Counted from the stretch's first letter, positions 26,911 to 48,204 are shown. The stretch is 64,000 bases of DNA from Candidatus Zambryskibacteria bacterium RIFOXYD1_FULL_40_13 (GCA_001824295.1 MHWY01000008.1:52261-116260); one strand, 5' to 3'. The notes: a model not told the origin generated them from the sequence alone. Program-made: numbers and translations.

Positions 26911-27021
26911 GAATACGAATATACGAATAATGCGAATCAACGAATGGCTACGAATATGGAGCTGGTATTTTGCATTTATTCGTATACATTCGCATATTCG
27001 TATTGTTTTTCATTCGCATAT
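26911..27021. repeat. Palindromic ACGAAT/ATTCGT-rich intergenic element, copy 1
   Basis: gaatacgaatatacgaataatgcgaatcaacgaatggctacgaat ... attcgtatacattcgcatattcgtatt; the arms are reverse-complementary; homologous to 48095-48204. Confidence 0.8.
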
Positions 27022-27440
27022 ATAAAAAACCGCCCAATAATGGGGGTCCGTGGCTAGCACAGGCACTCATGATTGGGCGGTTGGGGAGAAGAGTCATCCA
27101 GCTATCCAAATAAGCCAGTTACAATAACGAAGCTCAAAAAATAGTAGATAGTGTAGGATCGTTTAAGGCTGAGCCTACTGAAAACCAAATGACCTTCTAA
27201 AGAGGGGGACTCGGCCGAGTCCCAAATATATACGAAACGCATTTCGCGACAAGGAACAAATGTAAAAATTCCACCCGACAGACTTCACAATCTATCGGAC
27301 ATCCAATTTACGTCTGAAATAAGTTTATATTTTTTTCAAAGACATGTAAAGGACATATCTAAACAAAAAGTGGATAACTCTGGACATGCTTGGTAAAAAC
27401 AACTTATAATATATGTATTATTAAATAATAAATTAAAATT

Positions 27441-27644
27441 ATGCGAGGATTACACAAGTTGACATTTTTACTTATTTTAATCGGAGGCCTAAACTGGGGA
27501 CTTGAACTCTTTGGTTTGGCTCTTGGTTCTTGGGGATTACCAGAAATGCTTGTTAAAATAGTATATGCTCTGGTTGCCCTATCAGCTATTTATGAAATAT
27601 TTGCACACAAGAGTATGTGCAAATCTTGTGAGGCAGGCCAGTAA
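27441..27644 (+). CDS. DUF378-family small membrane protein
   Basis: 67 aa; IGGLNWGLELFG motif characteristic of DUF378. Confidence 0.5.
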   Translation: MRGLHKLTFLLILIGGLNWGLELFGLALGSWGLPEMLVKIVYALVALSAIYEIFAHKSMCKSCEAGQ

Positions 27645-27761
27645 ACCAATAAAGTTTGAGAAAATAAAAAGCGCCACTGTCTAGTTGCGGTTTTTATTTT
27701 ATTCCAAACAATTGGATAAGTGCTGTTGTTTGGATAAATTGGACACGAAAAACCCCCACTT

Positions 27762-27795
27762 GCGTACAAGTGGGGGGCTACCCTTGACCTCCAGG
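27762..27795 (-). terminator. Rho-independent terminator of the GC-rich pseudo-receiver gene
   Basis: Minus strand: cccccacttgtacgcaagtgggggttttt. Confidence 0.7.
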
Positions 27796-27841
27796 GTGAG
27801 GAGCTCTCTTTACGGCAAGAGCACGAATCCATTTCTGTGTG

Positions 27842-28258
27842 TCAGTCAGCGAGCTGACACTGACAAAGAACCTCTTCCCAAGTATCGCCATAGGGTTTGG
27901 GGCTATCGAACCTTCGAGGTAGATCTAGGAAAAAATACCTGTTAGAAGGCCGTACTGCCTTCAGTGCCTCGACGAGATCAACAACCACATGGCTCGCTGG
28001 GTGGTTTGAGTCCATTGACACCACCACATTCCTTACCCTGCCAAAAGCAGCAGTGATAAGTGCAACACCATCGGGCCACTGACTGAAAGATGGCAAAACA
28101 TCAACCATCATCAAGTCAAATCTTTCCGACTTGAGGTCTCTTAACGCCGACTCGTACGTGCCATCGACCGTCACTTCATGTGCTGGCCACAGAGAGAGAT
28201 TTCTGAGTGTGTTCAGAACCTCACCAAACGGACTCGCAACAAAAATTAGGACCTTCAT
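27842..28258 (-). CDS. GC-rich stand-alone receiver-like (CheY-like, degenerate) domain protein
   Basis: Start at MKVLIFVASPFG (SD GGGAGA 6 nt upstream); FDLMMVDVLPSFSQWPDG, LITAAFG, K-P near the C-terminus resemble REC motifs but the N-terminal acidic pair is absent; ~50% GC. Confidence 0.4.
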   Translation of the reverse strand: MKVLIFVASPFGEVLNTLRNLSLWPAHEVTVDGTYESALRDLKSERFDLMMVDVLPSFSQWPDGVALITAAFGRVRNVVVSMDSNHPASHVVVDLVEALKAVRPSNRYFFLDLPRRFDSPKPYGDTWEEVLCQCQLAD

Positions 28259-28425
28259 GGTATTCTCCCTTTCAAGAAACTGTTTACGAGACATCCCCCT
28301 TCCAGAATGGAAAGGGGTGGTGTTCGTAATCTGACATAAGGATAGCATGTGTTGATTTATATGTCAAGTGTTTATTACAAAAATGTGTTGTTAATCAAGG
28401 GTTAAATCTTTTTTGTGGGGTAAGT

Positions 28426-29250
28426 TTGACACAAATATATCTTTGGAATATAATGGTTTGTATGAAAAACGACACAAAGATAGACCAAAAAGGCCTCCTA
28501 GAATCACTTGTAAGATCTGGCCTGTCAGAAAACGAAAGTAGAGTGTTTTTAGTCCTATTAGAGCTTGGTCGTGGAACAGTAACACAAATAACAAGAAAGG
28601 CCGGCCTAAACAGAACAACAGGGTACGATATTTTAGATAGTTTAGTTGTAAAAGGTCTTGCTAGTATTTCTGGCAAGGAACCAAAGGAAGAATACCTGGC
28701 CGAATCTCCAGATAAAGTCGTTTTGTTGATTGAAAAGGAAATAAACGAAAAGAACGAACAGCTTCAGAATGTAAAAAAATTATTGCCAGAGATGAGGTCT
28801 ATTCATAATGTTGCTGGAAGACCAAAGATAAGATTTTATGAGGGAATGGAAGGGCTGAAAGATGTTTACGAAGATACCCTAACTTCACACGAGGAGATTA
28901 GAGCATACGCAACCGTTGATGACATGCACATGGCTATGCCTTCTTATTTTTCTACATATTACAAAAGAAGAACAGAAAAAAATATTTCTATTAGGGCAAT
29001 CATTCCTGCAACACTCACAGGAAAAGCAAGGGCAAGCAGAGACGCGGAAGAAAAAAGACAGTCTAAACTTATTCCCCCTGATAAATACTATTTTTCACCT
29101 GAAATAAATATATATGATAATAAAGTAATGATTGCTTCGTGGCGAGAAAAACTTGGAATAATTATTGAAAGTGCAGAAATTGCTGATGCAATGAAAAAAA
29201 CTTATGAACTAGCATGGATAGGAGCGGAAGAGGAAAGTAAAAAATTATAA
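28426..29250 (+). CDS. TrmB-family transcriptional regulator
   Basis: N-terminal wHTH LSENESRVFLVLLELGRGTVTQITRKAGLNRTTGYDILDSLVVKGL; the true start may be the internal Met at ~28465. Confidence 0.55.
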   Translation: MTQIYLWNIMVCMKNDTKIDQKGLLESLVRSGLSENESRVFLVLLELGRGTVTQITRKAGLNRTTGYDILDSLVVKGLASISGKEPKEEYLAESPDKVVLLIEKEINEKNEQLQNVKKLLPEMRSIHNVAGRPKIRFYEGMEGLKDVYEDTLTSHEEIRAYATVDDMHMAMPSYFSTYYKRRTEKNISIRAIIPATLTGKARASRDAEEKRQSKLIPPDKYYFSPEINIYDNKVMIASWREKLGIIIESAEIADAMKKTYELAWIGAEEESKKL

Positions 29251-30072
29251 TATCTCTAGTTGAATAGGGCAGTGGTCGGAGCCAAGTTCGCTTGCAAGGA
29301 TTTTGGAGGATTTTATTTTTGGCAATAAGTCCTTACTTGCAAAAAAATAATCAATACGCCAGCCGACATTGTTGGCCCTGGCGTTTGCCCATGGGGCCCA
29401 CCAGGTATAGTGGCCTTTTCCCTTTGTGAAATGACGAAATGTGTCGATAAATCCAGAAGATACCATTTTATCCATACCAATTCTTTCTTCCTTTGTGTAT
29501 CCATGCTTACCTTCGTTTGGTTTGGGATTAGCCAGGTCATCTTCTGTATGTGCCACATTCATATCACCACAAAATACAACAGGTTTGGTTTTCTCTAAGT
29601 TTCCAACATACTCCAGAAATACTGGGTCCCACTGCTTGTGGCGAAGGGGGAGGCGACTTAAATCTTCTTTGGAATTCGGAGTGTAAACATTCACAATATA
29701 TAAGTCTTTAAATTCTGCCGTCAAAACACGACCTTCTGTGTTTGGGTTGCCATATTCGTCGGCTAACTTATATTTTTTAAGTAAATCCTCTGGAAAGCCC
29801 AAAGCCACACTCAAAGGGGTTTCCCCGCCTGCTCCCGACTCGTGAGGGCGGGCAGGTCTTTTGCAAAAAATAGCGGTGCCACTGTAACCCGCTTTCTCTG
29901 CCGAGTTCCAATATTCCTCGTATTCTGGCAAATCAACTTCACTTTGATGTTGTTTTGCTTTTGTTTCTTGTAGACAAATAACATCTGGCTTGTATTTCTC
30001 CACAAAGGGCAAAAATAAACCCTTGTTATGCACAGCTCTTATTCCATTTACATTCCAGGAGATGATTTTCAT
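29245..30072 (-). CDS. xth: Exodeoxyribonuclease III (AP endonuclease)
   Basis: 275 aa; MKIISWNVNGIRA, ICLQETK, SDHCPI signatures. Confidence 0.9.
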   Translation of the reverse strand: MKIISWNVNGIRAVHNKGLFLPFVEKYKPDVICLQETKAKQHQSEVDLPEYEEYWNSAEKAGYSGTAIFCKRPARPHESGAGGETPLSVALGFPEDLLKKYKLADEYGNPNTEGRVLTAEFKDLYIVNVYTPNSKEDLSRLPLRHKQWDPVFLEYVGNLEKTKPVVFCGDMNVAHTEDDLANPKPNEGKHGYTKEERIGMDKMVSSGFIDTFRHFTKGKGHYTWWAPWANARANNVGWRIDYFFASKDLLPKIKSSKILASELGSDHCPIQLEIL

Positions 30073-30207
30073 CTCAATATTTTACCACAAACAAGAACAA
30101 GAGCTTAAAATGCCTCAGGTGCTAGGCGCAGGAAGTTTTGTGAAAGAGCCGTACTGTCGTACGGTGAATGAACAAAACTGAACTGCAACAACGCAGATGA
30201 GGTATTT

Positions 30208-31149
30208 TTAGCTCTTGTTATGAAACTTCTTGTGGATGTCACGGAGGTGTTTGTCAGTCACATGTGTATATATCTGTGTGGTAACAATACTTGAGTGTCC
30301 GAGCATGGCTTGGACGGAACGCAAGTCCGCCCCATTGCCGAGTAAATCTGTGGCAAAAAGGTGTCGTATTGTATGGGGTGTAACCTTTTTTGATATTCCA
30401 GCTTTGATTGCATGCTGTTTTACAATCCTCTCAATTGATCTGTTGTTCAGAAATCCATATTCTCTCGTACTGTTACTTTTAAAACTTTTTTCATCAACGG
30501 GGGTAAATAGGGCGTCACTAATATCCTTGCGTGCCTTCAAATATGCCCTGACACATTTCTTTGCCTCGTCAGAAAGGAAAACCACGCGAACCTTGCCCCC
30601 CTTACCACGAACAGACAGCTCGTCAGAATTAAGGTTTATGTCTCGTGTTAGAGACCGGAGCTCGGAAACACGAAGACCAGTAGAAAACAGCAGTTCGAGA
30701 ATGGCTTTGTCTCGCAAATCTTTCAGATTGCTCCCGTTGGGGGAATTGAGCATACGAGAGAGTTCCTCTGGAGTGATAAGGTCAAGAGACCTCTCGGAAA
30801 CCTTTGCTAGTTCTATCCTCTCGGCAGGCATGGTTTTAATTTCCTGCCTAGCTAGATATTTTAAAAAGGCCCGAAGAGCGATGAGATAGTAGTTCTGAGT
30901 TTTTCTGGACAATGTTTCATCGTTTCTCTTGCTGTGACCGGTCGGTTGCCTGTTGAGCCAGAGACGATACTGACGAACTACCTCATCCTTTATGTCGGCT
31001 GGGTTGTCAGTCTTGATGAAGTTCAAAAAACGAGTCAAATAGTGGTCATAATTCTCAACAGTTTTCACCGAACGGCCTCGTTCTATTTCTATGTATTCAA
31101 GAAACTGTTGTTTGAGTTGTTTGAGTGAAGACATGAAAATAGTTATCAA
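30208..31149 (-). CDS. Tyrosine site-specific recombinase, XerC/XerD family
   Basis: 313 aa; HTIRHLFATDLLGNGADLRSVQAMLGHSSIVTTQIYTHV C-terminal catalytic region (R..H..R..Y). Confidence 0.85.
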   Translation of the reverse strand: MITIFMSSLKQLKQQFLEYIEIERGRSVKTVENYDHYLTRFLNFIKTDNPADIKDEVVRQYRLWLNRQPTGHSKRNDETLSRKTQNYYLIALRAFLKYLARQEIKTMPAERIELAKVSERSLDLITPEELSRMLNSPNGSNLKDLRDKAILELLFSTGLRVSELRSLTRDINLNSDELSVRGKGGKVRVVFLSDEAKKCVRAYLKARKDISDALFTPVDEKSFKSNSTREYGFLNNRSIERIVKQHAIKAGISKKVTPHTIRHLFATDLLGNGADLRSVQAMLGHSSIVTTQIYTHVTDKHLRDIHKKFHNKS

Positions 31150-31219
31150 GTAGAAAGTTAAAAGTTATCAAGTTAATGCATAAATTATAACATGAAATCA
31201 TGTCGCACAATATTTTTAG

Positions 31220-31250
31220 ACAAGAAAAGACCGCCTCACGGGAGGCGGCC
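31220..31250 (-). terminator. Rho-independent terminator
   Basis: Minus strand: GGCCGCCTCCCGTGAGGCGGTCTTTTCTTGTC. Confidence 0.65.
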
Positions 31251-31481
31251 AAGGAAGAACAGGGTGGCCAGAACGCCGGCCACGAACGAGAGGATCTGGC
31301 GCCAGTACTGGCGCCAAGCTGAGCGAATGAAATGAGAGAGATGTCGGTACAGGAATCGGTCGATCGCTCTCCACACCCGCCCGACGGCCGGGGGGCCACC
31401 CACCAACAGCGCCAGGCCGGTGATGAGTAGCATGATGAGAACGGAAAGCGTGAAGAGCTCGTTGAGTAGCATCTGTAGCAC
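31236..31481 (-). CDS. GC-rich hypothetical small membrane protein (2 TM)
   Basis: 81 aa; ~60% GC; SD GAGGTG 7 nt upstream of the ATG; terminator directly downstream. Confidence 0.45.
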   Translation of the reverse strand: MLQMLLNELFTLSVLIMLLITGLALLVGGPPAVGRVWRAIDRFLYRHLSHFIRSAWRQYWRQILSFVAGVLATLFFLGRLP

Positions 31482-31644
31482 CTCGGTTCTTGGGTGGCCT
31501 GTGTGACCACCTCCTACCCCGTATTATATCATATAGAGGTGACAAAGTCAAGAATAAAACAGTTTCCTGGGATTTTTTGGCTATAACTAGGCCCAATAAA
31601 ATAACCTTGCAATGTAGTGGGTTTTGTGATATCCTATCGGAACA

Positions 31645-31911
31645 ATGTTAACAAAGACAAAAAAATCAAAAATCGTTAAAGATGTTCAAGTACACGATAC
31701 AGACACTGGCTCTCCGGAGGTTCAGATTGCTATTTTGAGTAAAAGAATAGACGAACTAGCCGTACACCTTAAGAAAAACGCAAAGGATAACCACTCTAGA
31801 CGCGGACTGTTGCAAATGGTTGCAGACAGAAAAGCTCACATGAAGTATCTCGAGAAAAAATCTCCAAAAAGATATAATTCTCTTACTAAGAAGCTTGGGT
31901 TGAAGAAGTAG
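31645..31911 (+). CDS. rpsO: 30S ribosomal protein S15
   Basis: 88 aa; GSPEVQIAILSKRIDELAVHLKKNAKDNHSRRGLLQMV. Confidence 0.9.
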   Translation: MLTKTKKSKIVKDVQVHDTDTGSPEVQIAILSKRIDELAVHLKKNAKDNHSRRGLLQMVADRKAHMKYLEKKSPKRYNSLTKKLGLKK

Positions 31912-32267
31912 GGACTCCTCATTAATAATTTCTTTCTTATTTGTCTCTTTCAGAGAGACACGCATAAATTCTTGCTAGAATTTTGCTTGAGTTCGTGCCG
32001 TCGCACTCACTAGTCTCTCCTCAAGTGACAAAACGACAAAATTATTAATTCGTCGTTAGTAGTTGGGTGTTTGTGATATAATTCTATTGTCGATTTTTTA
32101 TATTTGAATTCTTTTTTACTTTATTAACTTTACAAACTTTATAACTTTTAACTTAACAACATGTCAGTTATTAAACACCCCAGTACTAGAGCAAAGCTCA
32201 GTACGGGGCAGGAAGTGCTATTATTAGTTTAAGTAAGTTATTTATTCTTTAATTTTTATATACATTT

Positions 32268-32807
32268 ATGAGTGTAATTAAACACAAAAATCAGCGCGTT
32301 GGTATCTTTATTGATACACAAAACTTATACCATTGCGCAAAAAATATTTATGGCGCGAAGGTAAACTTCGACCAAGTAGTCAAAGACGGTCTAGCAGGAA
32401 GACAACTTATACGAGCTGTGGCTTATGTCATAACCACAGAGGCTGGGGACGAGAAAAACTTTTTTGAAGCACTAGAGAAAATGGGCATCGAAACGAAAAC
32501 AAAAAACCTCCAGATATTCTCTGGTGGTGCTAAAAAGGGGGATTGGGATGTTGGACTTGCTGTTGATGCAATAAAACTTGCACCAAAACTTGATGCAGTC
32601 ATCCTTGTAACGGGTGACGGCGACTTTGTTCCACTTGTAGAATACCTCCAGGTCAACGAAGGTTGTCAGGTAGAAGTTGTGTCGTTTGGTAAGTCTTCTT
32701 CGGCAAAACTTATTGAGGCTAGTGACGACTTCATTGACCTAGATGATAACCCGAGAAAATATCTAATCGGTTTCGGGGCAAACAAACGACCACGCAGAAC
32801 AATGTAA
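32268..32807 (+). CDS. NYN-domain (LabA-like/DUF88) protein
   Basis: 179 aa; VGIFIDTQNLYHCAK ... AVILVTGDGDFVPLV. Confidence 0.7.
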   Translation: MSVIKHKNQRVGIFIDTQNLYHCAKNIYGAKVNFDQVVKDGLAGRQLIRAVAYVITTEAGDEKNFFEALEKMGIETKTKNLQIFSGGAKKGDWDVGLAVDAIKLAPKLDAVILVTGDGDFVPLVEYLQVNEGCQVEVVSFGKSSSAKLIEASDDFIDLDDNPRKYLIGFGANKRPRRTM

Positions 32808-33081
32808 AATATTGTTGGTTGACTATAAGAACTGGATAGTATATTGTGGCTAAGCCAGCTGGGGCTGGCAAGCTACAACTCAAAAGGGGTGGCGCCGGTA
32901 ATCCCGATCCTCACGGGGGAAACTTGAAACCCGCGCCACCCCGAATGAGTTATCCAGTTCTTTGTGGCAAAAGCCACATTTCGTCGCAGTCTCTACGCAA
33001 ACCAGCACATTCAACAATGAGTGGCTGGTTGTTTTTGTAGAAAAATTTTTAATTCCAGTAAAATTTGTTACACTATAACAA

Positions 33082-33951
33082 ATGCCTCCAGAAAAAAAGA
33101 CAGAACAAGACGTGACGGGGGAGACAAAACCTTCGGTAAAGTCACTTCGCACATATCAAGGTGATGTTGAAGAAGCTGTACAAAAAAACAGTTTTTCGGC
33201 AACTACAATCCTCGTGGCAGAACAGAAAAGAAAGGAGGAAAACCCAGAAACAATAGACACACCTGAAGACGCGAGAGATAGAAACAAGTTTTTTGCTATG
33301 GCGGGAGGGATTCTGCTTATTCTTGGAGTTCTAACTGTTGCTTCTATATATTATATTAAGTCAAGAGAAGAGATTGCTGTTTTAGAACAAACCAAAACCT
33401 TGATGAGTTTTTCCAGAGAAAAGCTAATGCCTGTTACAGACCTAACAAGAGATGAGTTTATTGACAGTATCCTCACAGAAAAAAGAGCTTTTGACTTGCC
33501 AGTCAACTCTGTCTTGTATATTAATGTGGTAGATAAATTAAACAAACCAGAAAGCATAGATACATTACTGTCTTTACTCGGCCCACAAATGCCGTCTGCC
33601 CTAAAAAGAGCATTCGAGAAGGAATATATGCTTGGTGTTTATTCGTTTGAAGCAAACGAGCCATTTATTATTCTCAAAACAAAAGACTTCCCCTCAAGTT
33701 ACAGTGGCATGCTTAAGTGGGAGGAGAACATGGTCTTCGATATCGGTAGACTATTCTCCGTCCCCGAGGGAACAGCGGGGTTTGTGGATGAGGCTTTCCG
33801 CAACAAAGACCTTCGGGTTTTAAAAAATGACAATAAAAAAACCGTCCTTTTGTATTCATTTATAGATAAAAACACTTTAATTATTACTGCAAATGAAAAT
33901 GTTCTGATGGCCATAATAAGTAAATACACAGTTAGTGGTCAGATAAGGTAG
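33082..33951 (+). CDS. Hypothetical membrane-anchored protein
   Basis: 289 aa; charged N-terminus then a single TM (FFAMAGGILLILGVLTVASIYYI). Confidence 0.35.
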   Translation: MPPEKKTEQDVTGETKPSVKSLRTYQGDVEEAVQKNSFSATTILVAEQKRKEENPETIDTPEDARDRNKFFAMAGGILLILGVLTVASIYYIKSREEIAVLEQTKTLMSFSREKLMPVTDLTRDEFIDSILTEKRAFDLPVNSVLYINVVDKLNKPESIDTLLSLLGPQMPSALKRAFEKEYMLGVYSFEANEPFIILKTKDFPSSYSGMLKWEENMVFDIGRLFSVPEGTAGFVDEAFRNKDLRVLKNDNKKTVLLYSFIDKNTLIITANENVLMAIISKYTVSGQIR

Positions 33952-33991
33952 GGCAGGTTGCGTGGGGGTGGTTTTCTGTTACAATACGACT

Positions 33992-34354
33992 TATATGGAA
34001 CTAAATACACAACATTTTAAAGATTTATTATTAAAAGAGTCAGAGACTCTAGAGGAACAGCTTGCCTCTATAGGTAGAAAAAACCCAGATGATGCCGAGG
34101 ATTGGGAGGCGGTAGCCACGGATTTAGACGAAGATAATGCAGATGAGTTTGATGTTGCTGAGGATAAGGAAAATTTTGACAACAACAAGGCAGAGCTTGA
34201 CCAGCTTGAAATTCAACTGAACGAAGTGAAGTCGGCCCTTCAGAGAATAGAAGATGGTGAGTATGGAAAGTGTGAAATTTGTGATAAAGGAATTGAGGAG
34301 GATAGGTTGGAGGCAAACCCTTCCGCCAAGACATGTAAGGAACACATGAATTAA
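33992..34354 (+). CDS. DksA/TraR-family C4 zinc-finger protein
   Basis: Coiled-coil N-terminus, CEICDKGIEEDRLEANPSAKTCKEH C-terminus; start set at the internal MELNTQ. Confidence 0.65.
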   Translation, partial: YMELNTQHFKDLLLKESETLEEQLASIGRKNPDDAEDWEAVATDLDEDNADEFDVAEDKENFDNNKAELDQLEIQLNEVKSALQRIEDGEYGKCEICDKGIEEDRLEANPSAKTCKEHMN

Positions 34355-34513
34355 TCCTGGTCTTTTTGATTAATTTCTGCGTTGCTTGTTTTGTTTGTTC
34401 CACGCGCAGTACTATGTGTACAGCTTGGTCACAAACAAAACATCGCGCCTTGAACTAAATCAAAAATCCTCAGGATTTTATTTAATGAAATTAAAATTTA
34501 ATATTGAATCAGA

Positions 34514-36625: not shown

Positions 36626-36629
36626 GTCA

Positions 36630-36657: not shown

Positions 36658-36672
36658 GAAGAAACTGTTGGT

Positions 36673-39185: not shown

Positions 39186-39230
39186 ACTGTTGTTTTATTT
39201 TTATCTCAAACATATTACAATTAAGAAATC

Positions 39231-40808
39231 ATGGCTGTTTCAAAAATTTACAGCGCACAGACCACACTCCTTTCGGCGCAAATAATTGATATTGAAGTTG
39301 ACCTGTCAAAAGGTTTGCATAGCTTTAATGTTGTGGGGCTGGCAGATAAATCGGTAGACGAAAGTAAGGATAGGGTTGGAGCCGCCATAAAAAACTCTGG
39401 ATTCAAGTCACCTAAAAACAAAAATCAAAAAATCGTGGTCTCTCTTGCCCCAGCGGACATAAAAAAGGAGGGTCCGCTTTTTGATTTACCAATTGCTATT
39501 GCATACCTTTTGGCTTCGGAAGATATAAAAGCGGACACTGAAAAAAGACTTTTTGTTGGTGAACTATCTCTTGATGGGGAACTAAGGCCGATAAAAGGGG
39601 CTTTACCTATAACACAAAAAGCCAAAAAGGATGGTTTCAAAGAGATATTCCTACCAATTGAGAATGCAGAGGAAGCAGTAAGTATAGAAGGTATCAAGGT
39701 TTACGGAGCAGGAAGTTTAAAAGAAGTTTTACAACATATAAATACAAAGAAGATGGACGAATCGGATGATACAAAGGTGTTTATTCCTCATGTTGAGATT
39801 ATTCCTCACAAGAAATCCAAGAAAAAGAAAGTGGTGCGAGAAATTGACATTGATTTCGCAGACATTAAGGGTCAAGAATCAGCCAAAAGAGGATTGGAAA
39901 TCGCCGCAGCAGGTGGACACAACATAATAATGTATGGTCCTCCCGGCACAGGCAAGACTATGCTGGCCAAAGCTTTCACGCATTTACTTCCACCGCTTTC
40001 CTTTGACGAAATGCTTGAGGTCACTTCTATTTATTCTATTGGCGGAATGCTCTCCGAGGGCCTCATTGAACACCCACCCTTCCGCTCTCCACACCACACT
40101 GCATCTTATGTCTCTCTCGTGGGTGGTGGAACAAATTTGAAACCAGGAGAAGTTACCCTGGCCCACAAAGGGGTTTTATTCATGGACGAGTTTCCAGAAT
40201 TTGATAAGAAAGTGCTGGAAAGTTTGCGTCAGCCCTTGGAAGATAGGGTAGTAACAATTTCCCGAGCAAAGGGAAGTGCACGATATCCCGCACATTTTAT
40301 TCTTATTGCCACAATGAACCCATGCCCATGTGGAAATTATGGAGTGAAGGGTAAAGAATGTATCTGTTCTGCGCAAAATATAGAAAAGTATAAAAGAAAA
40401 ATGTCAGGACCGATTATAGACAGAATAGATATGTGGGTAGAAGTCTCAAAGGTTGAGCACGAGAAACTAACTGATGCTAGAGAGCTTCAAGAGGGAACGG
40501 GTGTGATGAAACCGAGAGTAGAGAAGGCCAGAAAAATGGCAGAGCAAAGATACAAAAAGTTGGGACTAAAAACAAAAACGAACGCCGAGCTCTCGCCAAA
40601 AGATTTAGTCAAACATATTACTCTTTCCGATAAGGTTAAGGAAGTTTTGAATAAATCAGCCAAACAGCTAGACCTTTCGGCCCGCTCATATCACAGGATA
40701 ATAAAACTGGCTCGCACGATTGCAGATATGGAAGGAGCAAGTGATGTAGCAGAAAACCATATACTAGAAGCACTACAGTATAGACCAAAAAAATATCAGA
40801 ATGGATAG
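39231..40808 (+). CDS. YifB/ComM-family Mg-chelatase-like AAA+ ATPase
   Basis: 525 aa; Lon-like N-terminal domain; Walker A GPPGTGKTMLAKAF; Walker B VLFMDEFPEF; C-terminal zinc motif CPCGNYG...C.C. Confidence 0.85.
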   Translation: MAVSKIYSAQTTLLSAQIIDIEVDLSKGLHSFNVVGLADKSVDESKDRVGAAIKNSGFKSPKNKNQKIVVSLAPADIKKEGPLFDLPIAIAYLLASEDIKADTEKRLFVGELSLDGELRPIKGALPITQKAKKDGFKEIFLPIENAEEAVSIEGIKVYGAGSLKEVLQHINTKKMDESDDTKVFIPHVEIIPHKKSKKKKVVREIDIDFADIKGQESAKRGLEIAAAGGHNIIMYGPPGTGKTMLAKAFTHLLPPLSFDEMLEVTSIYSIGGMLSEGLIEHPPFRSPHHTASYVSLVGGGTNLKPGEVTLAHKGVLFMDEFPEFDKKVLESLRQPLEDRVVTISRAKGSARYPAHFILIATMNPCPCGNYGVKGKECICSAQNIEKYKRKMSGPIIDRIDMWVEVSKVEHEKLTDARELQEGTGVMKPRVEKARKMAEQRYKKLGLKTKTNAELSPKDLVKHITLSDKVKEVLNKSAKQLDLSARSYHRIIKLARTIADMEGASDVAENHILEALQYRPKKYQNG

Positions 40809-40840
40809 AAACTTGACTCGTATGTTATAATACAGCCAAT

Positions 40841-41593
40841 ATGATAGAAAAATATCTAGAAGATGCTGGGTTAAGCGACAAAGAAGTTAAAATATATCTG
40901 CAATTAATACAAATGGAGAAAGCTTCTGTGGTAGATTTGGCAAATAAAACAAAGATTAAAAGACCGACTGTTTATACAATACTTGATTCTCTGGCAAAAA
41001 AGGGGTTGGTAAGTCAGATAGATGAGGACAAAAAAACCAGATATTTTGCTGAATCTCCTGATAAATTAAATTTGTTTGTAGAAAGGAAGGAGCAATCCCT
41101 AAAAGAACTGAAAGAAAGATTTGTTAACGACATTATTCCTCAAATAAAAAGTTTACAGAGAGAATCTGGAGAAAAACCTATCGTGAAGTTTTTCTCAGGT
41201 AAAGAAGGAATTGTAAGTGCCCACGATAATGTTTTTTATGGAAAACCAGATGGGTCACCAACATATATAATATATTCCAAGGATTTAGTTGATGAATCAT
41301 TCAAAAACGAGGAGACAAATAAATACCGCAACACTAGAATAGAGCTTGGTATAAAAGCAAAAACCATATACAACTGGTCAAAGGGGGTCAAGGAATCTGA
41401 CGAGATGGCCGAAAGAATAAAAGTTGATGAAAAAAAATATCCCTTTTTTACTGATATTACTATTTATAAAGATAGGGTGAGAATTAACATTTTGGGCAAG
41501 AAATTATCTGGTATTTATATTGAGAGTAAGGATTTAGCTGAAACTCTAAAAAGCCTGTTCAACCTAGCTTTTGATAACCTAAAAAACAAATAG
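40841..41593 (+). CDS. TrmB-family transcriptional regulator (paralog of 28426)
   Basis: 250 aa; LSDKEVKIYLQLIQMEKASVVDLANKTKIKRPTVYTILDSLAKKGLV wHTH. Confidence 0.55.
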   Translation: MIEKYLEDAGLSDKEVKIYLQLIQMEKASVVDLANKTKIKRPTVYTILDSLAKKGLVSQIDEDKKTRYFAESPDKLNLFVERKEQSLKELKERFVNDIIPQIKSLQRESGEKPIVKFFSGKEGIVSAHDNVFYGKPDGSPTYIIYSKDLVDESFKNEETNKYRNTRIELGIKAKTIYNWSKGVKESDEMAERIKVDEKKYPFFTDITIYKDRVRINILGKKLSGIYIESKDLAETLKSLFNLAFDNLKNK

Positions 41594-41606
41594 CAACAGA
41601 TATGGT

Positions 41607-41950
41607 GAAGGCCTGACGGGGGAATTGAATCCCCCCGCCAGGCCTTTGTCGAAGCCGAAGCTCCGTGGTCTTAGCCCTTTCGGGCCGTGTTGTTGGTAGT
41701 CTTTCGAGCTACCGTCCGTCCCAACCCGCATAGCGTGGTTGTGACGAACAAACGATAACTACTAGTCGAACACGGCCCCGCCTCCTTTCTGGAAAGGGCC
41801 CCGAACGAGACACTACCCGGATCAAACCCCACCGGCTCTGCTTGGGATGCCCTATCGCACCCCAAGTTCGCCCGCCGGGTTAGTCCCACATCCTCGCCTC
41901 CCTTGAACTGGGTTGACGTACCAACATAGAGTATACACCCTATGTTTATT
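41607..41950. other. GC-rich structured non-coding segment; begins with a tRNA-like minihelix hairpin
   Basis: GGCCTGACGGGGGAATTGAATCCCCCCGCCAGGCC (acceptor-like stem enclosing a T-arm-like hairpin); further hairpins GCCCTTTCGGGC, GGTAGTCTTTCGAGCTACC; ~58% GC; no ORF. Confidence 0.35.
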
Positions 41951-42093
41951 TTGTCAAATACGAATTTCAAAACAGATTAATTCTGTGTCAATTTAGTTAT
42001 GTTTGTGTCAGTCTCATTTATAATCAATATTATAATAAACGGCCTTATTATGGGCTGTTTTCATTATTCGTATAGATGATTTGTCAGAACTCC

Positions 42094-42122
42094 TTGACAA
42101 AAAATAGGACTTAGTATATACT
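42094..42122 (+). promoter_or_regulatory. Near-consensus sigma70-type promoter (TTGACA-17-TATACT) driving the 42259 gene
   Basis: ttgaca aaaaataggacttagta tatact read directly; followed by a ~125-nt leader containing a long hairpin GGATAACTTTCGCTTCC...GGGAGCGAAAGTAACCC. Confidence 0.6.
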
Positions 42123-42258
42123 ACTTCCAGAATCAAATAAACAAAAAGTCAGTTGGCTTTGACATCGGATAACTTTCGCTTCCACTTTGGTTGGTCCGGA
42201 TCGCACATATTACTTGCGAGGGACCCCAAAGCGGGAGCGAAAGTAACCCACATTTGAG

Positions 42259-42582
42259 GTGAGTATGAAACGAGTGGTCTGTGCAGTCGTGCTAGTCCTC
42301 GCGGTCATGGCCACCGCTTGCAATGGGATGGTCCCCAAGCGAGAGGTGGTTCGGGACTACTGTGACACAGAGGTGGCGTACACCCTGTGGAAACAGGAGT
42401 CCGGGTACTGGCTCAATCTTCATGTTGGACCAGCCACCACGACCGTCTATTCCTCCAACCCTGGAAGGACACGGATGGTCAACTTGTCGCAGAAAGTTTC
42501 CTCTCCCGAGGAAGCCGACAAGTTGGTAAGAGAAACTCAGCAAGCCCTTGCCGAGAAACTCGCTAAGGCACGCCGAAAGTAG
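42259..42582 (+). CDS. GC-rich small secreted/lipoprotein-like protein
   Basis: 107 aa; signal peptide with Cys (VLAVMATAC); SD GAGGTGA; ~55% GC. Confidence 0.5.
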   Translation: MSMKRVVCAVVLVLAVMATACNGMVPKREVVRDYCDTEVAYTLWKQESGYWLNLHVGPATTTVYSSNPGRTRMVNLSQKVSSPEEADKLVRETQQALAEKLAKARRK

Positions 42583-42703
42583 TGCCGTGTAGACCAATCC
42601 CAAGTCTACAGAATTAGAAACTGGGACAACAATACTTCGGGGAAGTACCGAAGCGCCTACCAAGCGGTCACTGATCGTCCTCCAGAACGCCATCCTGGAT
42701 CCG

Positions 42704-42925
42704 AGGAAACCATAAATCCTCGGGTTTCCTTAAAAGCGAATCACCAGAATATAGACCGTGGTTTTCTTTTAAGGGAAGAGAGAAGGTGGTGACAGTGTGG
42801 CACTGAAGCGTCACAGTCGTAAGACTTCGGATGTTTTGTCCCAAGCAGACGAACCGCCGAATGTCACACCACCCCTTCTCCTTCCCAGCGTCATAGTCCA
42901 GGCCGGTGCAGCGGCCAGAGGACGC
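42704..42925 (+). ncRNA. Structured RNA-like element, copy A (strand uncertain)
   Basis: Hairpins GGAAACC...GGTTTCC, CCTTAAAAG...CTTTTAAGG, GGCCGgtgcagCGGCC; purine tract GGGAAGAGAGAAGG pairs with CCTTCTCCTTCCC; homologous to copy B with compensatory changes. Confidence 0.45.
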
Positions 42926-43358
42926 GAGAGTGAAATTCTCCACCTTTAAGTGAACTCTCCACTACTCCTTCAGGGAGTAGAAGGTGGACGGCGAGAGAAA
43001 CTCGTCATCGGGGATTAAAACACGGGTGGCCACCATGTTCTACAAAACAAGGAGGTCGGCCAAGCCCGCAAAAAACACCCCGAACTGCACTCGTTCTTTT
43101 CATAAACAATCTTTCGAAACCAAAGGTATGAGGTAGGTGTGGACAGACACCATAACCGAGTAGTGATGTGATTTGATAAGTACACCCTGAAAGGGTGTAA
43201 GTAACAGATGATCCACCAGCAGTGGGAATGGAGTGATGCTCTCCAGTCATCGTGTTGCCACATCCTATAAAATGGATGGGGCTCTCCTGAGCTTCCGTTC
43301 AGCGGAGACAAGATCCGCACTGTCCTTGCTTCGGAAGGTTGTGCCTAAACCTTGCCCT

Positions 43359-43540
43359 GAGGAACCTTGAGTTTCTCGGGGTTCCTTAAAAGCAAATCAC
43401 TAAACATAGACTGTGGTTTTCTTTTAAGGGAAGAGGGAGTACACGAGGGCTAAAATGATGCGCCTCATAAAGGCTGTCCCCTGATGTATGGAAACTTCTT
43501 CCCAAGTTACTCGTCCAGGCCTGTGCAGAGGCCAAAGGAC
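43359..43540 (+). ncRNA. Structured RNA-like element, copy B (strand uncertain)
   Basis: Same architecture as copy A: GGAACC...GGTTCC (covaries with A), CCTTAAAAG...CTTTTAAGG (identical stem), GGCCTgtgcagAGGCC (covaries with A); the variable middle domain differs. Confidence 0.45.
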
Positions 43541-43791
43541 TGTGGGGTGGTATGTATCCGTCCGAACCGAGAACCCCCCCGTACTCTGCAAGAGTAAAGG
43601 ACGGATGGTGAAGACTTACATTCATCATTGGGTAAAATGCCCCTCTAATGGGCAGTCATCCGTGGGGATTGTTGAGTGGAAACACCGCACCCTATTGACC
43701 CCAAACTGCACACCGCTCTTTTTGGAACGGCTCTACGGTTAAGGCTTCGCAAGCTACCATCGTGGGGCCTTTTTCGTATTAAAATTACACC

Positions 43792-44151
43792 CTACTCACC
43801 TTTTTGCCAATACATATTTAAATAGGCTGCTAGTCTGTGATATTTATCAGAAATAGACATCCCAGTTTCTTCATCAATTTTTTCATCACCAAGAGAAAAT
43901 CCATCTAGGGCCCCGAGCGAATTCTTGAACAACCTACCTCCAACCATAAAAGATTCTACCCCATCTTTAGATTTATATGAATCAATAAAATCCTGGGCTT
44001 CTTGTCTAGTTAACCCGCCTTCTTCACCCCATTTTATTGCTTCTTCAATAAATTTTTTTCTTCTGGCAGTTTTTTCTTTTTCTGTGTCACCCATCATAGA
44101 TTCTGCCTGTAAAATTTCTTCCTCTGTTGGTGTGTATTTATCTATACTCAT
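43792..44151 (-). CDS. Hypothetical protein (AT-rich, native-looking)
   Basis: 119 aa, acidic, no recognisable motifs. Confidence 0.35.
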   Translation of the reverse strand: MSIDKYTPTEEEILQAESMMGDTEKEKTARRKKFIEEAIKWGEEGGLTRQEAQDFIDSYKSKDGVESFMVGGRLFKNSLGALDGFSLGDEKIDEETGMSISDKYHRLAAYLNMYWQKGE

Positions 44152-44291
44152 AAATTTTATACTAGTTACTAATAGGTAATATTATACAATAAATGACCGG
44201 TGATGCCACACAACTTCTTGCGTAATAATAAAATTGACAAATTAAATGGTGAGAGTAGATTTAAAATCAGATAACCAACCTGGGAGGCAGT

Positions 44292-44618
44292 GTGGGCCTG
44301 AAGGCAAAGATGTCGTTGCGTATCGAGATTCCCTTTCTCACGGAGAACCCTCTCCGACACCTGATTGAGGTTGAGCTTGACCTCGATCTTGATCGAGGAA
44401 CCACAGTCCGGGGAAAGATTCCGGAGGAATTCACCATCGGCCCACAAAGGGTGTTTGTAGGCAAGGGAAAAGGACTCCTTGGTGCGATGGTAGACTGGCT
44501 CAAGCAGGTTGATTCTTCGGTGGAGTACCTTCCTGCCCACTGCAAGGTGGAGGACGAGAAGCGACGCCAAGCGGCCGAACAAAGACTCAAGGAAATGGGT
44601 CTATGGCCGATGCTCTAA
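44292..44618 (+). CDS. GC-rich hypothetical protein (GTG start)
   Basis: 108 aa; ~52% GC; SD GGGAGG 4 nt upstream of GTG; terminator at 44627-44663 (ccccgtgtggcccaaaaggccaccggggcttttt). Confidence 0.4.
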   Translation: MGLKAKMSLRIEIPFLTENPLRHLIEVELDLDLDRGTTVRGKIPEEFTIGPQRVFVGKGKGLLGAMVDWLKQVDSSVEYLPAHCKVEDEKRRQAAEQRLKEMGLWPML

Positions 44619-44826
44619 TGTACACTCCCCCGTGTGGCCCAAAAGGCCACCGGGGCTTTTTGGTTTATAAAATTTACACCACCACAGACAGTAAGTTTGG
44701 AAAATAGCTCGGTGAGTTTTTGTTCGAGTTCAAGGCGGAATGAGAAAATGCGAGGAGCCTTACTTGTCGTAAGGTGATGAGAATTTTTGAAATTCCAACG
44801 CAGAAATCGGAAAAAAGACCCGAGCG

Positions 44827-45861
44827 TTAGAAAGGATTCCTTGCGCCTCTAATTTCGAAATGTAGATGTACACCAGTCAGCCCCTTAACCCTCCCCGTAT
44901 TTCCCATTTTACCTATAACCTGACCCTGCTCAACAGAATCTCCAACATTTACTGACACTCCAGAAAGGTGAGCATAAACCGTCTGTGTGCCGTTACTGTG
45001 TTTAATAACAATATAAGAGCCATAACCACCATTCCAACCAGAACCCTTTGAAACAATCACCTGGCCAGAAGCTGACGCAAGAATATTTGAGCCATAGGAA
45101 GAAGCCAAGTCAACTGCATACCTGTCGTGCAAACCCTGTGTCCTTATTCCTCCAACAATCGGTCGCATGTAATAACCTTCGTACGTTGGATAAGATGTGG
45201 TTTTCTTTGTAGAACTGCTACCGCCCGATGAAACTTGGATAGCCTCACCACCAGGCACAACGATAATATCTCCTATAGCAAGTTTAGAATTTTTACTTAG
45301 GTTGTTATACATTAAAACTTCTTCAAAATCTCCTTTGTATAACTTGGTTATGCTTTGAAGAGTATCACCAGACTTGACCTTGTGTTGTATTCCAGATATT
45401 GGCAAGATAACCAATGTTTGACCCACAGAAATAGTGCTTCCTTTTATATCATTACTCCACCTTACTGTGTTTACCGAGACCCCAAACATCTTGGCGATTG
45501 CTGGTAAGGTATCGCCTTTTCTAACGACATACAAGCTAATTTGGTCTTCATCTACGGTCTTTGAGTCATCAAATTTTTGAACTTCTGGTAGAAGAAATGC
45601 ACCATCAACGATGGTGATTTCCTCCTCGGCAGTAGTCGAGCTCTGGTTAGGAGATATTGTGGCCTGGAGCAAGGCCATATTCTGGGAATTTAGCTCAAAC
45701 TCCTCTGTCTGGGCCTCAGCTTTTGAGAAAAAACCTGTGAAGAAAGAAATAACCCCGGCCTTTGCAGAAACGGGGACAGACAAACATATAAAAATAATTA
45801 CAGAAAAAACACCGTTGGTTAGTAACCTACTTATGTTCACCGCTGATTTGTCTGATCCCAC
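44827..45861 (-). CDS. LysM-domain M23-family peptidoglycan endopeptidase
   Basis: 344 aa; signal/TM; two LysM repeats (YVVRKGDTLPAIAKMFGVSVNTVRWSN; HKVKSGDTLQSITKLYKGD); M23 motifs HDRYAVDL ... GVHLHFEIR. Confidence 0.85.
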   Translation of the reverse strand: MGSDKSAVNISRLLTNGVFSVIIFICLSVPVSAKAGVISFFTGFFSKAEAQTEEFELNSQNMALLQATISPNQSSTTAEEEITIVDGAFLLPEVQKFDDSKTVDEDQISLYVVRKGDTLPAIAKMFGVSVNTVRWSNDIKGSTISVGQTLVILPISGIQHKVKSGDTLQSITKLYKGDFEEVLMYNNLSKNSKLAIGDIIVVPGGEAIQVSSGGSSSTKKTTSYPTYEGYYMRPIVGGIRTQGLHDRYAVDLASSYGSNILASASGQVIVSKGSGWNGGYGSYIVIKHSNGTQTVYAHLSGVSVNVGDSVEQGQVIGKMGNTGRVKGLTGVHLHFEIRGARNPF

Positions 45862-46159
45862 TGGGCTACATTTTGAGAATGATTTGCCGCCCGTGCTTTT
45901 AAGACCTGACCCTAACCGCGGATCTTGTTGTGAGCTTATAATAAGCTAAAAATTAAAATATATTCTGGTTGTCAGTGGCAAATATGGCTCTACTAGACCA
46001 TATTTTAGTCTCCTTAGTTCAGTACTCCTAAAGTATATACCTGCAGGCTGTGGGGTCAATAGGGGTTACACACAGCAAGCAATAGTCCGTAAAGTTCATA
46101 AAGTTGAAAGTTTATAAAGAAAATTCGGGAATTAAAAAGAAAAATGCTAAAATCAAGCA

Positions 46160-48088
46160 ATGAATTATCTTGATGGATTAAATAAAGAGCAGAAAGAAGC
46201 TGTTTTGGCTACCGAGGGACCCGTTTTAATCGTGGCTGGGGCAGGAGCTGGCAAGACAAAGACCATAACCCATAGAATTCTACATCTTATTTTAAGTGGG
46301 CAGAGGCCCGACAACATCCTGGCAATTACCTTTACAAACAAAGCCGCCAAAGAGATGAGGGAGAGAGTAATGAATCTAATTGTGGGTTCAGCCGAAAGAC
46401 GTGGGGTGCCATTTGTCAGCACCTTCCATTCTCTGGGGGTACAAATTCTGAAGGAAAACTCGGAACTACTCAAGCTTCCAAGACATTTCAACATCTTCGA
46501 CAAAGCCGACTCAAAGAAAGCTCTAAAGGATGCTATTGTGTCTCTTGGGCTAGATCCCAAAGAACATTTGGATAAAGTTCAACACATAATATCTGGTGAA
46601 AAGGGCAGGGGGGTAGATATAAAAGAGTATTTGGAAAAGGAAAGCTACGACTACACATCGGAACTTACAAAAAGGGTGTGGACAAAATATGAAGAAACCC
46701 TGGTAAAGGAAAACGCTCTTGATTTTGATGATTTGTTACTGAAGACACTAAAACTTCTAAAAAAATATCCCGAGGTTCTGGAAAAATATCAAAACCGCTT
46801 TTTATACATTCATATAGACGAATACCAGGACACAAACAAGGTACAAAACGCCATTGTTGAGCTTCTAGCAAAAAAACATAGAAATTTGTGCGTGGTGGGG
46901 GATACTGACCAGAACATTTACAGCTGGCGTGGAGCAGAAATAAAAAACATGTTGCATTTTGAAAAAACCTATCCTGAAGTACAAACTTTCTTTCTGGAAC
47001 AGAATTACCGATCAACAAAAAATATTTTAGCCGTAGCAAATGAGATTATTGAAAAAAATAATTTCCGTATTCCCAAAAAACTATTTACAGAAAACGTTGA
47101 GGGAGAGAAGGTGGGTTTGTTTAGGGGTAGAAACGAAATAGATGAGGCCCACTTTATCGCCATGAAATCAAAAGAGTTAATATCATCTGGAACTACGGAT
47201 GAAAACATAGCCGTACTCTATAGGGCCAACTTTCAATCAAGAGTTTTGGAGGATGCATTTCTTTCGCACGGGGTGCCGTACCAAATGCTCGGCACAAAAT
47301 TTTTTGAGAGAAAAGAAATCAAGGATGTGGTTGGTTATATCAAAGCATCGCTCAATTCAAATGATGTTGGTAATTTCATTCGGACAATCAACATCCCACC
47401 AAGGGGTATAGGAAAAACCACCGTACAGAAAATCATCCAAGGACTGGAAAAGGACTTGCCTGAAAATACAAGGTCTAAAATAAACAACTTTAGAAACATG
47501 CTTGGAGATTTCAACGCCGTACTTAAAAATCAAAAACCAAGTGATGCAATAAAATACATCATAAAGACTTCGGGCATAGAGATTTTGTACGAAACAAAAT
47601 CCGAAGAAGATTTAGACAGATTGGAAAACATTATGGAGCTTGTTTCACTTGCAAAAAAATATGACAACTTAGAGCCAGAAGAAGGTATTGAAAAATTCTT
47701 AACCGATGCTTCGCTGGTTTCTGACCAAGATTCACTCAGCGAAAAAAGGGGTGGTGTAAAACTTATGACTGTCCATTCCTCAAAAGGCCTTGAGTTCGAC
47801 TACGTTTTTGTATCCGGACTAGAAGCCGACCTTTTTCCACACAAGAAAATGTTTGAATCAAAAAAGAGTGGCGAGGACAAGGAGGAGGAACGACGTTTGT
47901 TCTACGTGGCAGTTACTAGGGCTGGGAAAAAACTGTTTTTGACATTGGCAGACACCCGTACTATATTTGGAAATACAGAAATAAATTCACCCTCGGAATT
48001 TATAGACGACATTCCAGAAAAATACGTTGAGACCGAATCATTTGTATCTGAAACAAAAAAAGAACCGTTGTTTAGTATAGATTTTTAA
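46160..48088 (+). CDS. UvrD/PcrA/Rep-family SF1 DNA helicase
   Basis: 642 aa; Walker A AGAGAGKTKTITHRI; helicase motifs VDEYQDTN, QNYRST, VTRA. Confidence 0.9.
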   Translation: MNYLDGLNKEQKEAVLATEGPVLIVAGAGAGKTKTITHRILHLILSGQRPDNILAITFTNKAAKEMRERVMNLIVGSAERRGVPFVSTFHSLGVQILKENSELLKLPRHFNIFDKADSKKALKDAIVSLGLDPKEHLDKVQHIISGEKGRGVDIKEYLEKESYDYTSELTKRVWTKYEETLVKENALDFDDLLLKTLKLLKKYPEVLEKYQNRFLYIHIDEYQDTNKVQNAIVELLAKKHRNLCVVGDTDQNIYSWRGAEIKNMLHFEKTYPEVQTFFLEQNYRSTKNILAVANEIIEKNNFRIPKKLFTENVEGEKVGLFRGRNEIDEAHFIAMKSKELISSGTTDENIAVLYRANFQSRVLEDAFLSHGVPYQMLGTKFFERKEIKDVVGYIKASLNSNDVGNFIRTINIPPRGIGKTTVQKIIQGLEKDLPENTRSKINNFRNMLGDFNAVLKNQKPSDAIKYIIKTSGIEILYETKSEEDLDRLENIMELVSLAKKYDNLEPEEGIEKFLTDASLVSDQDSLSEKRGGVKLMTVHSSKGLEFDYVFVSGLEADLFPHKKMFESKKSGEDKEEERRLFYVAVTRAGKKLFLTLADTRTIFGNTEINSPSEFIDDIPEKYVETESFVSETKKEPLFSIDF

Positions 48089-48094
48089 GATAAA

Positions 48095-48204
48095 CATACG
48101 AATATGCGAATAATGCAAATATACGAATGGATACGAATGAAAGGGCGCCTCTTTTGTATTATTCGTAGTCATTCGCATCATTCGTTAATTCGTATATTCG
48201 TATG
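48095..48204. repeat. Palindromic ACGAAT/ATTCGT-rich intergenic element, copy 2 (right arm overlaps the rsmA start codon)
   Basis: acatacgaatatgcgaataatgcaaatatacgaatggatacgaat ... attcgtagtcattcgcatcattcgttaattcgtatattcgtatg; homologous to 26911-27021. Confidence 0.8.

Follow-up and report, generated by a model that had tools for sequence, protein, structure and literature searches.

A 64,000 nt stretch of the genome of Candidatus Zambryskibacteria bacterium RIFOXYD1_FULL_40_13 (GCA_001824295.1, MHWY01000008.1:52261-116260; hereafter the window, with positions counted from its first letter) carries two palindromic elements of about 110 nt, built from arrays of the hexamer ACGAAT and close variants. 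The first (copy 1) begins directly after the TAG stop codon (26908–26910) of the gene for the CCA-adding enzyme (25441–26910, by Pfam), and the second (copy 2) fills the entire spacer between the genes for UvrD and RsmA. Their coordinates, and those of related features described below, are given in Table 1. An earlier reading of the sequence (the original prediction) had placed palindromic elements at both positions, and the arms, motif arrays and profile matches all agree with its locations. The two copies are genuine palindromes, wedged between genes.

Both copies share one layout, in which four or five RCGAAT motifs spaced at 8–10 nt are followed by a 22 nt loop that contains no open reading frame (ORF), and then by an inverted array of ATTCGY motifs. 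Copy 1 has five RCGAAT hexamers in its left arm (at 26915–26955) and four ATTCGY in its right arm. In copy 2, whose terminal sequence is GATAAACAT, the left arm contains four perfect RCGAAT motifs and a single GCAAAT, and the right arm five ATTCGY. The inverted arrays bear out the reverse-complementary right arms that had been described, those of copy 2 being 77% complementary to each other, and a repeat search likewise recovered the shared left arm, with 88% identity between the copies over 43 nt. The RNA fold check that had been proposed gave stable predicted stems, of −34.3 kcal/mol for copy 1 (z = −4.6 versus shuffles) and −42.9 kcal/mol for copy 2 (z = −7.0), the outer helix of the latter being predicted to span ~21 bp. 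A profile built from 12 related elements matches exactly two sites in the window (E = 1.7e-28 and 1.7e-24), while a search of the whole window against Rfam at the gathering threshold found four tRNAs only, and no known RNA family at either copy.

A weaker third copy had been proposed at ~41965–42080. This was rejected, as only the terminal octamers ATACGAAT (41958) and ATTCGTAT (42066) remain at the site (~41960–42071), with no internal motifs even when one mismatch is tolerated. A facing pair of hexamers is expected 0.47 times by chance, and a profile search with filters off gave nothing there at E ≤ 10. The third site is at most a fully decayed relic.

It is hardly credible that the two remaining copies represent a chance similarity, or a duplication that took place locally in this genome alone. 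They are the only two in the window, but from the background hexamer rate a 41 nt span with at least five RCGAAT motifs is expected ~5e-7 times per window, and mononucleotide-shuffled windows contained no arrays of four or more periodic 5-mers. Over their whole length the copies are just 73% identical and their flanks are unrelated, so that they are not a recent local duplication, and similar elements are found in many other genomes.

The wider search for the arm consensus that had been suggested was positive. A pattern scan of one genome per species, using ACGAATATRCGAATN{3,4}CGAAT, returned at least 119 loci, and the family crosses phyla. The matches listed come from the candidate phyla radiation (CPR), including Saccharibacteria, Zambryskii-, Uhr-, Moran- and Taylorbacteria and other CPR groups, and also from Nitrospinota, Anaerolineae/Chloroflexota, Bacteroidota, Calditrichia, Gammaproteobacteria and more. 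The majority of the listed loci are hairpins of three to five CGAAT motifs, a loop, and three to five ATTCG motifs (mostly four or five per arm), with loop lengths that differ by subtype (~20–22, 15–16 or 44–45 nt). The subtypes are lineage-specific and present in several copies per genome, some of them identical, e.g., two in L110. The window copies belong to a five-motif CPR subtype (type A) with the ends AAGATAAACATACGAAT...ATTCGTATGTTTATCTT. Elements usually lie 0–30 nt from an ORF on either side, and co-directional, convergent and divergent contexts all occur. Five Bacteroidota loci (L007, L023, L030, L075 and L076) carry longer CGAAT arrays of 8–18 tandem units with higher-order repeats, which flank a conserved core of ~40 nt (ggggtgctaatacgagtggttactaacttgataagtagcg) and form a distinct Bacteroidota subtype. 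A scan of viral contigs, made with a phage vector in mind, was uninformative: among its 16 loci, simple tandem arrays and lone arms predominated. The class of hairpin-armed mini-elements apparently has not been described so far: within a literature coverage that was incomplete, and so does not prove absence, the motif strings occurred in no paper, palindromic repeat elements in Patescibacteria gave no match, and the periodic arms, the gene-less hairpins and their link to GxxExxY genes (see below) were found undescribed.

RsmA relatives were fetched from metagenomes in order to compare the uvrD–rsmA junction. In one of these (L134, 66% RsmA identity) the junction is empty and reads GATTTTTAATATGATA / GATTTTTAATATGATAAAAAAG, i.e., stop, one base, start (TAA-T-ATG). 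In another (L135, also 66% RsmA identity) a type A hairpin lies exactly between the stop codon and the ATG, as in the window, and it is to this orthologous-site element that copy 2 is nearest (82% identical). The empty site TTTTAA-T-ATGAT thus corresponds to TTTTAA-GATAAACAT...ATTCGT-ATGAT when occupied. As one relative lacks the ACGAAT element at this junction and another has it, the element is an insertion, and is dispensable to the cell. The rsmA start codon forms part of the terminal palindrome (CAT...ATG) of copy 2, which fits the earlier suggestion that the arm contributes this ATG, but such an origin is unprovable because the empty site carries an ATG at the identical point. A Taylorbacteria contig (L055, 3359–4257) has rsmA with CGAAT elements at both ends, and the first codons of the gene, ATG ATT CGT, are arm sequence; rsmA junctions may be a hot spot, or this may be coincidence.

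CGAAT arms also occur around a gene. At five loci representing at least three lineages (L054, L030, L159, L160 and L163) they enclose a GxxExxY gene, and two of these, L054 from Sumerlaeota and L030 from Bacteroidota, were the gene-bearing members of the initial set of at least 119 loci (TIGR04256, E = 1.4e-42; PF13366). L054 and L159 belong to the same Sumerlaeota assembly, as two of its contigs, with the flanks of L054 unannotated, and the flanking genes are mutually unrelated in four of the five loci. The DNA of L159, L160 and L163 has the form GGAACA-(CGAAT N4 CGAAT N3 CGAAT N4 CGAAT)-gene-(ATTCG x3–4)-TGTTC, and the arms of these three loci and of L054 match those of gene-less hairpins from Nitrospinota (type B). 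At its 3′ end (CGAATagtaaactaaaat) the GxxExxY ORF is similar to the first part of the loop in the gene-less Nitrospinota hairpins (CGAATaaaaactaaaat). Other GxxExxY genes have arms of equal period made from other motifs, of the GCGGCG type in L030 and CGCGGAC in L008. In the latter (Saccharibacteria, CAZVQM010000090.1, 600–1500), a GxxExxY cassette with CGCGGAC/GTCCGCG arms is located inside a recG-like gene, between the helicase motifs DEQHRFGV and ATPIPRT, and further along the same contig there is a separate array of six CGAAT motifs that is apparently translated in frame within the protein. Longer relatives of the hairpins were found to encode only GxxExxY (PF13366) or 23S_rRNA_IVP (PF05635), with no transposase family matched. 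No solved structure for GxxExxY was found by sequence.

A homologue search with the L054 protein gave 876 proteins, and many of the 120 that were listed (P0121–P0240) begin with MEHELHEYTNGTNEE, MTRINESTRID or MARMARM. Such N-termini are the CGAAT arm translated in one of three frames, as confirmed in the DNA of L159, L160 and L163. Many GxxExxY entries are ~136 aa in length, the gene callers having run the ORF through the left arm. The arm-derived N-termini look like a systematic annotation artefact, and many GxxExxY proteins in the databases apparently carry a spurious N-terminal extension of this kind.

A sister family in the window, overlooked by the original prediction, as were the cargo genes and the relation to rRNA intervening sequences (IVS), has TAAAGT/ACTTTA arms with an equal period of 8–10 nt (repeat search). 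Its full-length member has the ends CATAG...CTATG and carries a gene of the 23S_rRNA_IVP family, the stop codon of which lies within the innermost motif of the right arm (ACTTTATGA). Relatives of this IVS protein (~67–72% identical by tblastn) are always flanked by AAAGT/ACTTT, in three different contexts. In one of them (L122), a gene-bearing element (72% identical) lies between a 270 aa gene and PrgI, the very site that in the window is taken by the gene-less TAAAGT/ACTTTA hairpin. A gene-less hairpin is therefore present where a relative carries the gene, and its loop retains both the pre-start region (aaaacacaAT vs aaaatacaATG) and the final codons of the IVS gene (cttcttaagACTTTATGA). Conversely, L122 has just TAAcaagtaaattaacATG at the site of the full-length element of the window. 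The two solo arms of this family are probably half-decayed elements. No IVS-protein gene was found beside CGAAT arms in the fetched loci, either by tblastn or with a hidden Markov model of 120 homologues; a distant IVS-protein gene in L113, with AAATTA arms, was the sole new match. A type IV secretion-like operon (window 54281–62618; PrgI, TraC-like, VirB4/TraG P-loop) holds two hairpin elements, and in relatives the IVS-protein cassette is found at a different junction of that operon.

Table 1. Palindromic elements, arms and associated genes in the 64,000 nt window.
Feature	Position	Strand	Basis and remarks
ACGAAT copy 1 (type A, ORF-less)	26911-27021	.	Motif arrays, fold, profile search; left arm 26913-26955, loop 26956-26977, right arm 26978-27017
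ACGAAT copy 2 (type A, ORF-less)	48089-48208	.	Occupies entire UvrD-RsmA spacer; left arm 48095-48138, loop 48139-48160, right arm 48161-48204
UvrD gene	46160-48088	+	Pfam
UvrD stop TAA	48086-48088	+	6 nt ahead of copy 2 stem base (CAT at 48095)
RsmA gene	48202-48984	+	Pfam
RsmA start ATG	48202-48204	+	Final right-arm triplet; predicted pairing with CAT 48095-48097
Gene-less TAAAGT/ACTTTA hairpin	57369-57480	.	Between upstream gene, with TAG stop in left end (57369-57371), and PrgI, with ATG in right end (57478)
Full-length TAAAGT element	58586-59012	+	Arms 58586-58631 and 58959-59012 around IVP gene; preceding gene ends at TAG 58586-58588, VirB4-like gene begins at ATG 59010
IVS-protein cargo gene (23S_rRNA_IVP, four-helix-bundle)	58632-58976	+	114 aa; PF05635 E = 5.9e-33, TIGR02436
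Solo TAAAGT arm, left type	46083-46133	.	Upstream of uvrD start
Solo ACTTTA arm, right type	32101-32154	.	Repeat search
Tandem AATTTCTA x5	9381-9425	.	Directly upstream of minus-strand gene 7624-9375 (unannotated)

The 23S rRNA IVS of Coxiella is a 428 nt selfish element with an S23p ORF in its loop and three to four tandem heptamers (GACAGAT) in its stem, before the ORF start; RNase III cuts at the first repeat, and the ORF is decaying, one strain having a 176 bp deletion (PMC4990558). The rRNA IVS are located in helices of 23S rRNA, and proteins of the S23p family are homopentamers of four-helix bundles (PMC4990558). Two structures, PDB 2gsc and 2rld, match the IVS protein of the window, with five chains each. 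The 23S_rRNA_IVP family is described as having no known function, and ORFs of this kind are present in rRNA insertions of CPR bacteria (PMC11270868).

The elements described here resemble rRNA IVS (of the Coxiella, Leptospira and Xanthomonas type) in their terminal inverted repeats, which give a long stem, in the tandem stem repeats next to the start of a single small loop ORF, and in the decay of that ORF by deletion, a sporadic distribution suggesting horizontal spread, and the lack of a known transposase (PMC4990558). The TAAAGT element of the window, moreover, carries the same protein family. They differ in lying between protein-coding genes and not in rRNA helices, in a stem base that carries a stop codon and a start codon, and in their cargo, as the ACGAAT copies have no ORF and their full-length CGAAT relatives carry GxxExxY instead of S23p. 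Cleavage by RNase III has been shown for IVS, and by analogy only may extend to the present elements.

The ACGAAT palindromes are most readily explained as decayed, gene-less members of a widespread class of IVS-like selfish cassettes, and not as terminators; a probability of roughly 60% is assigned to this reading. An intact cassette consists of two inverted arms, each with four or five short motifs at 8–10 nt spacing, and one small gene between them, CGAAT arms being paired with GxxExxY (of the PD-(D/E)XK fold) and AAAGT arms with the four-helix-bundle gene of 23S rRNA IVS. Cassettes sit exactly between host genes, or occasionally within them, and upon deletion of the cargo gene the arms would persist as a hairpin of ~110 nt. 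The element would be co-transcribed with its neighbours, and its arms are predicted to form a long imperfect stem in the mRNA, which, on the model of rRNA IVS, RNase III probably cuts. The stem has the upstream stop codon 0–10 nt from its 5′ base and the downstream ATG close to or at its 3′ base, so that ribosomes ending translation of the upstream gene could melt the stem base and free the ATG, mimicking the stop-T-ATG of the empty site. Insertion would then be close to neutral, since stop–start coupling would be retained. Given its nuclease fold, the GxxExxY protein may have the arms as its substrate. Overall, the elements fit best among the IVS-like or MITE-like selfish palindromes (MITE, miniature inverted-repeat transposable element), as a novel form of these.

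Several results weigh against this explanation. No GxxExxY gene was found in the window (tblastn, E ≤ 1), and none of the type A elements found contained a cargo gene, so that the connection between the window copies and GxxExxY is made through the shared motif and design, and through the type B and Bacteroidota examples. Likewise, no rRNA was detected in the window or in loci L001–L142 (eight conserved probes with two mismatches; Rfam in the window), leaving the IVS link as one of design and cargo family only. At the uvrD–rsmA junction, in a comparison of genomes that share only 66% RsmA identity, no direct repeat indicating a target-site duplication is evident, and no other signature of transposition was seen. 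Complementarity between the spacers of the two arms is 48% within elements versus 52 ± 4% between elements, and there is no covariation in the stem, all 26 consensus pairs of RNAalifold being inside the invariant motifs. A sense-strand folding bias is also absent, the sense strand folding better in 10 of 24 co-directional contexts and the antisense strand in 14. Real hairpins fold barely better than chimeric ones (mean z = −0.5; −0.2 and −0.1 for the window copies). With neither covariation, nor spacer complementarity, nor strand bias, selection on RNA structure is not demonstrated.

Across the elements, only the motif and its spacing are conserved, and the spacers vary. The stem can form, but judged by this pattern of conservation a protein-binding array fits at least equally well, and the conserved periodic motif suggests such an array rather than a mere helix. 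A possible but less likely alternative, itself compatible with the decayed-cassette explanation, is that the periodic motifs are a protein-binding array on DNA or RNA and the helix itself is unimportant, each arm binding an oligomer (a trans-acting cargo protein or a host factor) that drives mobility or regulation. It would account for the retention of just a 5–6 nt motif and an 8–10 nt spacing, with free spacers and without covariation or strand bias, and for the equal period and copy number of arms that have different cargo and different motifs (AAAGT, AAATTA, CGAAT and CGCGGAC); the five subunits of the IVS-family homopentamers (XCC0516, 2gsc; 2rld) are also near to the four or five motifs per arm. 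Binding is, however, purely hypothetical, there is no clean match of protein to motif (GxxExxY genes ~40% identical to the L054 query carry CGAAT or other motifs), and the window holds no cognate GxxExxY gene.

An analogy, and no more than that, is offered by TRAP, a ring oligomer that binds 11 GAG/UAG triplets separated by free spacers of 2–3 nt. The likeness is in the conserved short motif with free spacers of near-fixed length, and in a repeat number near the number of ring subunits, i.e., the pentamer of the IVS family compared with four to five motifs. In contrast to TRAP sites, the motifs here form two inverted arrays and are part of an insertion, not of a regulated leader, and their binding is hypothetical.

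The idea of a large bidirectional terminator, which was part of the original prediction, was not supported, as neither copy has a T/U run or a terminator-like pattern and the stems are A+U-rich with internal loops. A conventional hairpin that is terminator-like, as read from the sequence, lies downstream of copy 1 (~27029–27085), and copy 2 is located within an operon-like gene pair. More generally, the elements could be host-serving RNA structures, such as 3′-end stabilisers, processing sites or bidirectional terminators, that tune the expression of their neighbours, but this is quite unlikely. The placement of stable predicted stems directly after stop codons would suit such a role, yet there is no U-tract, and copy 1 is followed by the separate terminator-like hairpin. 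The uvrD–rsmA junction is occupied in two lineages (with RsmA 66% identical to that of the window) and the Taylorbacteria rsmA in L055 likewise abuts a CGAAT hairpin, but the same junction is empty in L134, where the site works without the element. The lack of sense-strand bias and covariation, and the presence of the identical element class in divergent and convergent contexts, also argue against a host function.

The order of events could be the reverse of that proposed above, with hairpins being the primary or favoured targets, and GxxExxY and IVS genes being secondary invaders that home into their loops. The gene-less ACGAAT hairpins would then be targets that were never occupied, and not deletion products. 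Loops do accept inserts: nested hairpins, with a palindrome of another motif inside a CGAAT loop, were seen in L113 (2249–2482, a CAAAT/ATTTG hairpin in a type A loop), L089 (6467–6612) and L017 (595–740), which suggests that loops are preferred insertion points. The known position of rRNA IVS in 23S rRNA helices is in keeping with homing of this kind, as is the large excess of gene-less over gene-bearing hairpins in the CGAAT sample. It remains a rather unlikely account, as the loop of the gene-less TAAAGT hairpin keeps the pre-start region and last codons of the IVS gene, loops of type B are similar to the GxxExxY ORF at its 3′ end, and arms and cargo occur jointly in unrelated gene contexts.

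The comparison with repetitive extragenic palindromic (REP) elements or MITEs that had been drawn earlier stands insofar as these are small, dispersed, ORF-less palindromes, multicopy in relatives, with a junction that is empty in one genome and occupied in another; formally, however, they belong to neither class. Like MITEs, the elements are ~110 nt long and ORF-less, have inverted ends, occur in several copies per genome with presence or absence between relatives, and apparently derive from longer, gene-bearing relatives by internal deletion. They differ from MITEs in that the longer relatives have no recognised transposase, and also in that the ACGAAT arms are not a single terminal inverted repeat but arrays of a short periodic motif, which is constant from phylum to phylum in arms that otherwise vary freely. 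No target-site duplication was evident at the uvrD–rsmA junction in the comparison of genomes with 66% RsmA identity. With REP elements and bacterial interspersed mosaic elements (BIMEs) they share an intergenic position, including within operons, an imperfect palindromic structure and many copies per genome, and REP/BIMEs are thought to affect mRNA ends. A REP/BIME identity was rejected, as REP are 20–40 nt long, so that the ACGAAT elements (~110 nt) are three times longer, with a periodic internal motif, and their ends (AACATACGAAT...ATTCGTATGTT) have no GTAG/CTAC head. The associated genes are GxxExxY and IVS protein, and no RAYT transposase gene was seen in the window.

A broader proposal, put forward tentatively, is that GxxExxY and the IVS four-helix-bundle proteins, both abundant and of unestablished function, are the cargo of one minimal, as yet unrecognised class of mobile cassette, in which the arms are read by a cargo oligomer (for example, five motifs per arm by a pentameric ring), cassettes invade hairpin loops and gene junctions, and rRNA IVS are the rRNA-resident subset. 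If so, insertions would be rendered near-neutral by RNase III processing in combination with the stop and start codons at the foot of the stem, and near-neutrality would explain how the cassettes came to occur in many phyla and why operons, and even genes (recG in L008, for example), are so often split. The protein families named '23S rRNA IVS protein' and 'GxxExxY protein' would then share one genomic explanation, and rRNA IVS would be one niche of a broader class of elements, making their origin testable. A possible functional association has been reported for IVS-protein genes that lie between cas genes (PMC3936711); these would more simply be insertions and not functional partners. The elements would also be a measurable source of operon remodelling in the small genomes of CPR bacteria, with arms that can supply or mask neighbouring start codons. 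The wider pattern of periodic arms, GxxExxY or IVS cargo, cross-phylum spread and rRNA IVS deserves to be followed up.

Other arrays and repeats were noted in the window. The tandem array of AATTTCTA is possibly a solo arm of a third family, its motif being of the class seen in L113, where a distant IVS-protein gene (6383–6766) lies between scpA and scpB and is flanked by AAATTA/TAATTT arms. Within 32101–32300 of the window, the solo ACTTTA arm is followed by a 23-codon ORF beginning ATG TCA GTT ATT AAA CAC (MSVIKH...), and about 100 nt further on, the gene at 32268–32807 begins ATG AGT GTA ATT AAA CAC (MSVIKH...); the matching starts indicate that the 5′ end of the gene has been duplicated beside the element remnant.

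The region from 41.6 to 44.8 kb is poor in ORFs, without long ones, and contains a direct repeat of ~90 nt (42694–42783 and 43350–43438; 75–92% identical, 655 nt apart); a permissive Rfam scan of 41.5–46.2 kb gave nothing credible. Finally, two copies of a ~130 nt element were found at 15211–15343 (+) and 30096–30219 (−), with no Rfam match at the gathering threshold. They have a conserved core of ~95 nt, and an outer stem that differs in sequence between the copies yet pairs in both (compensatory change). The element, which has no relation to the ACGAAT family, is a candidate structured non-coding RNA.

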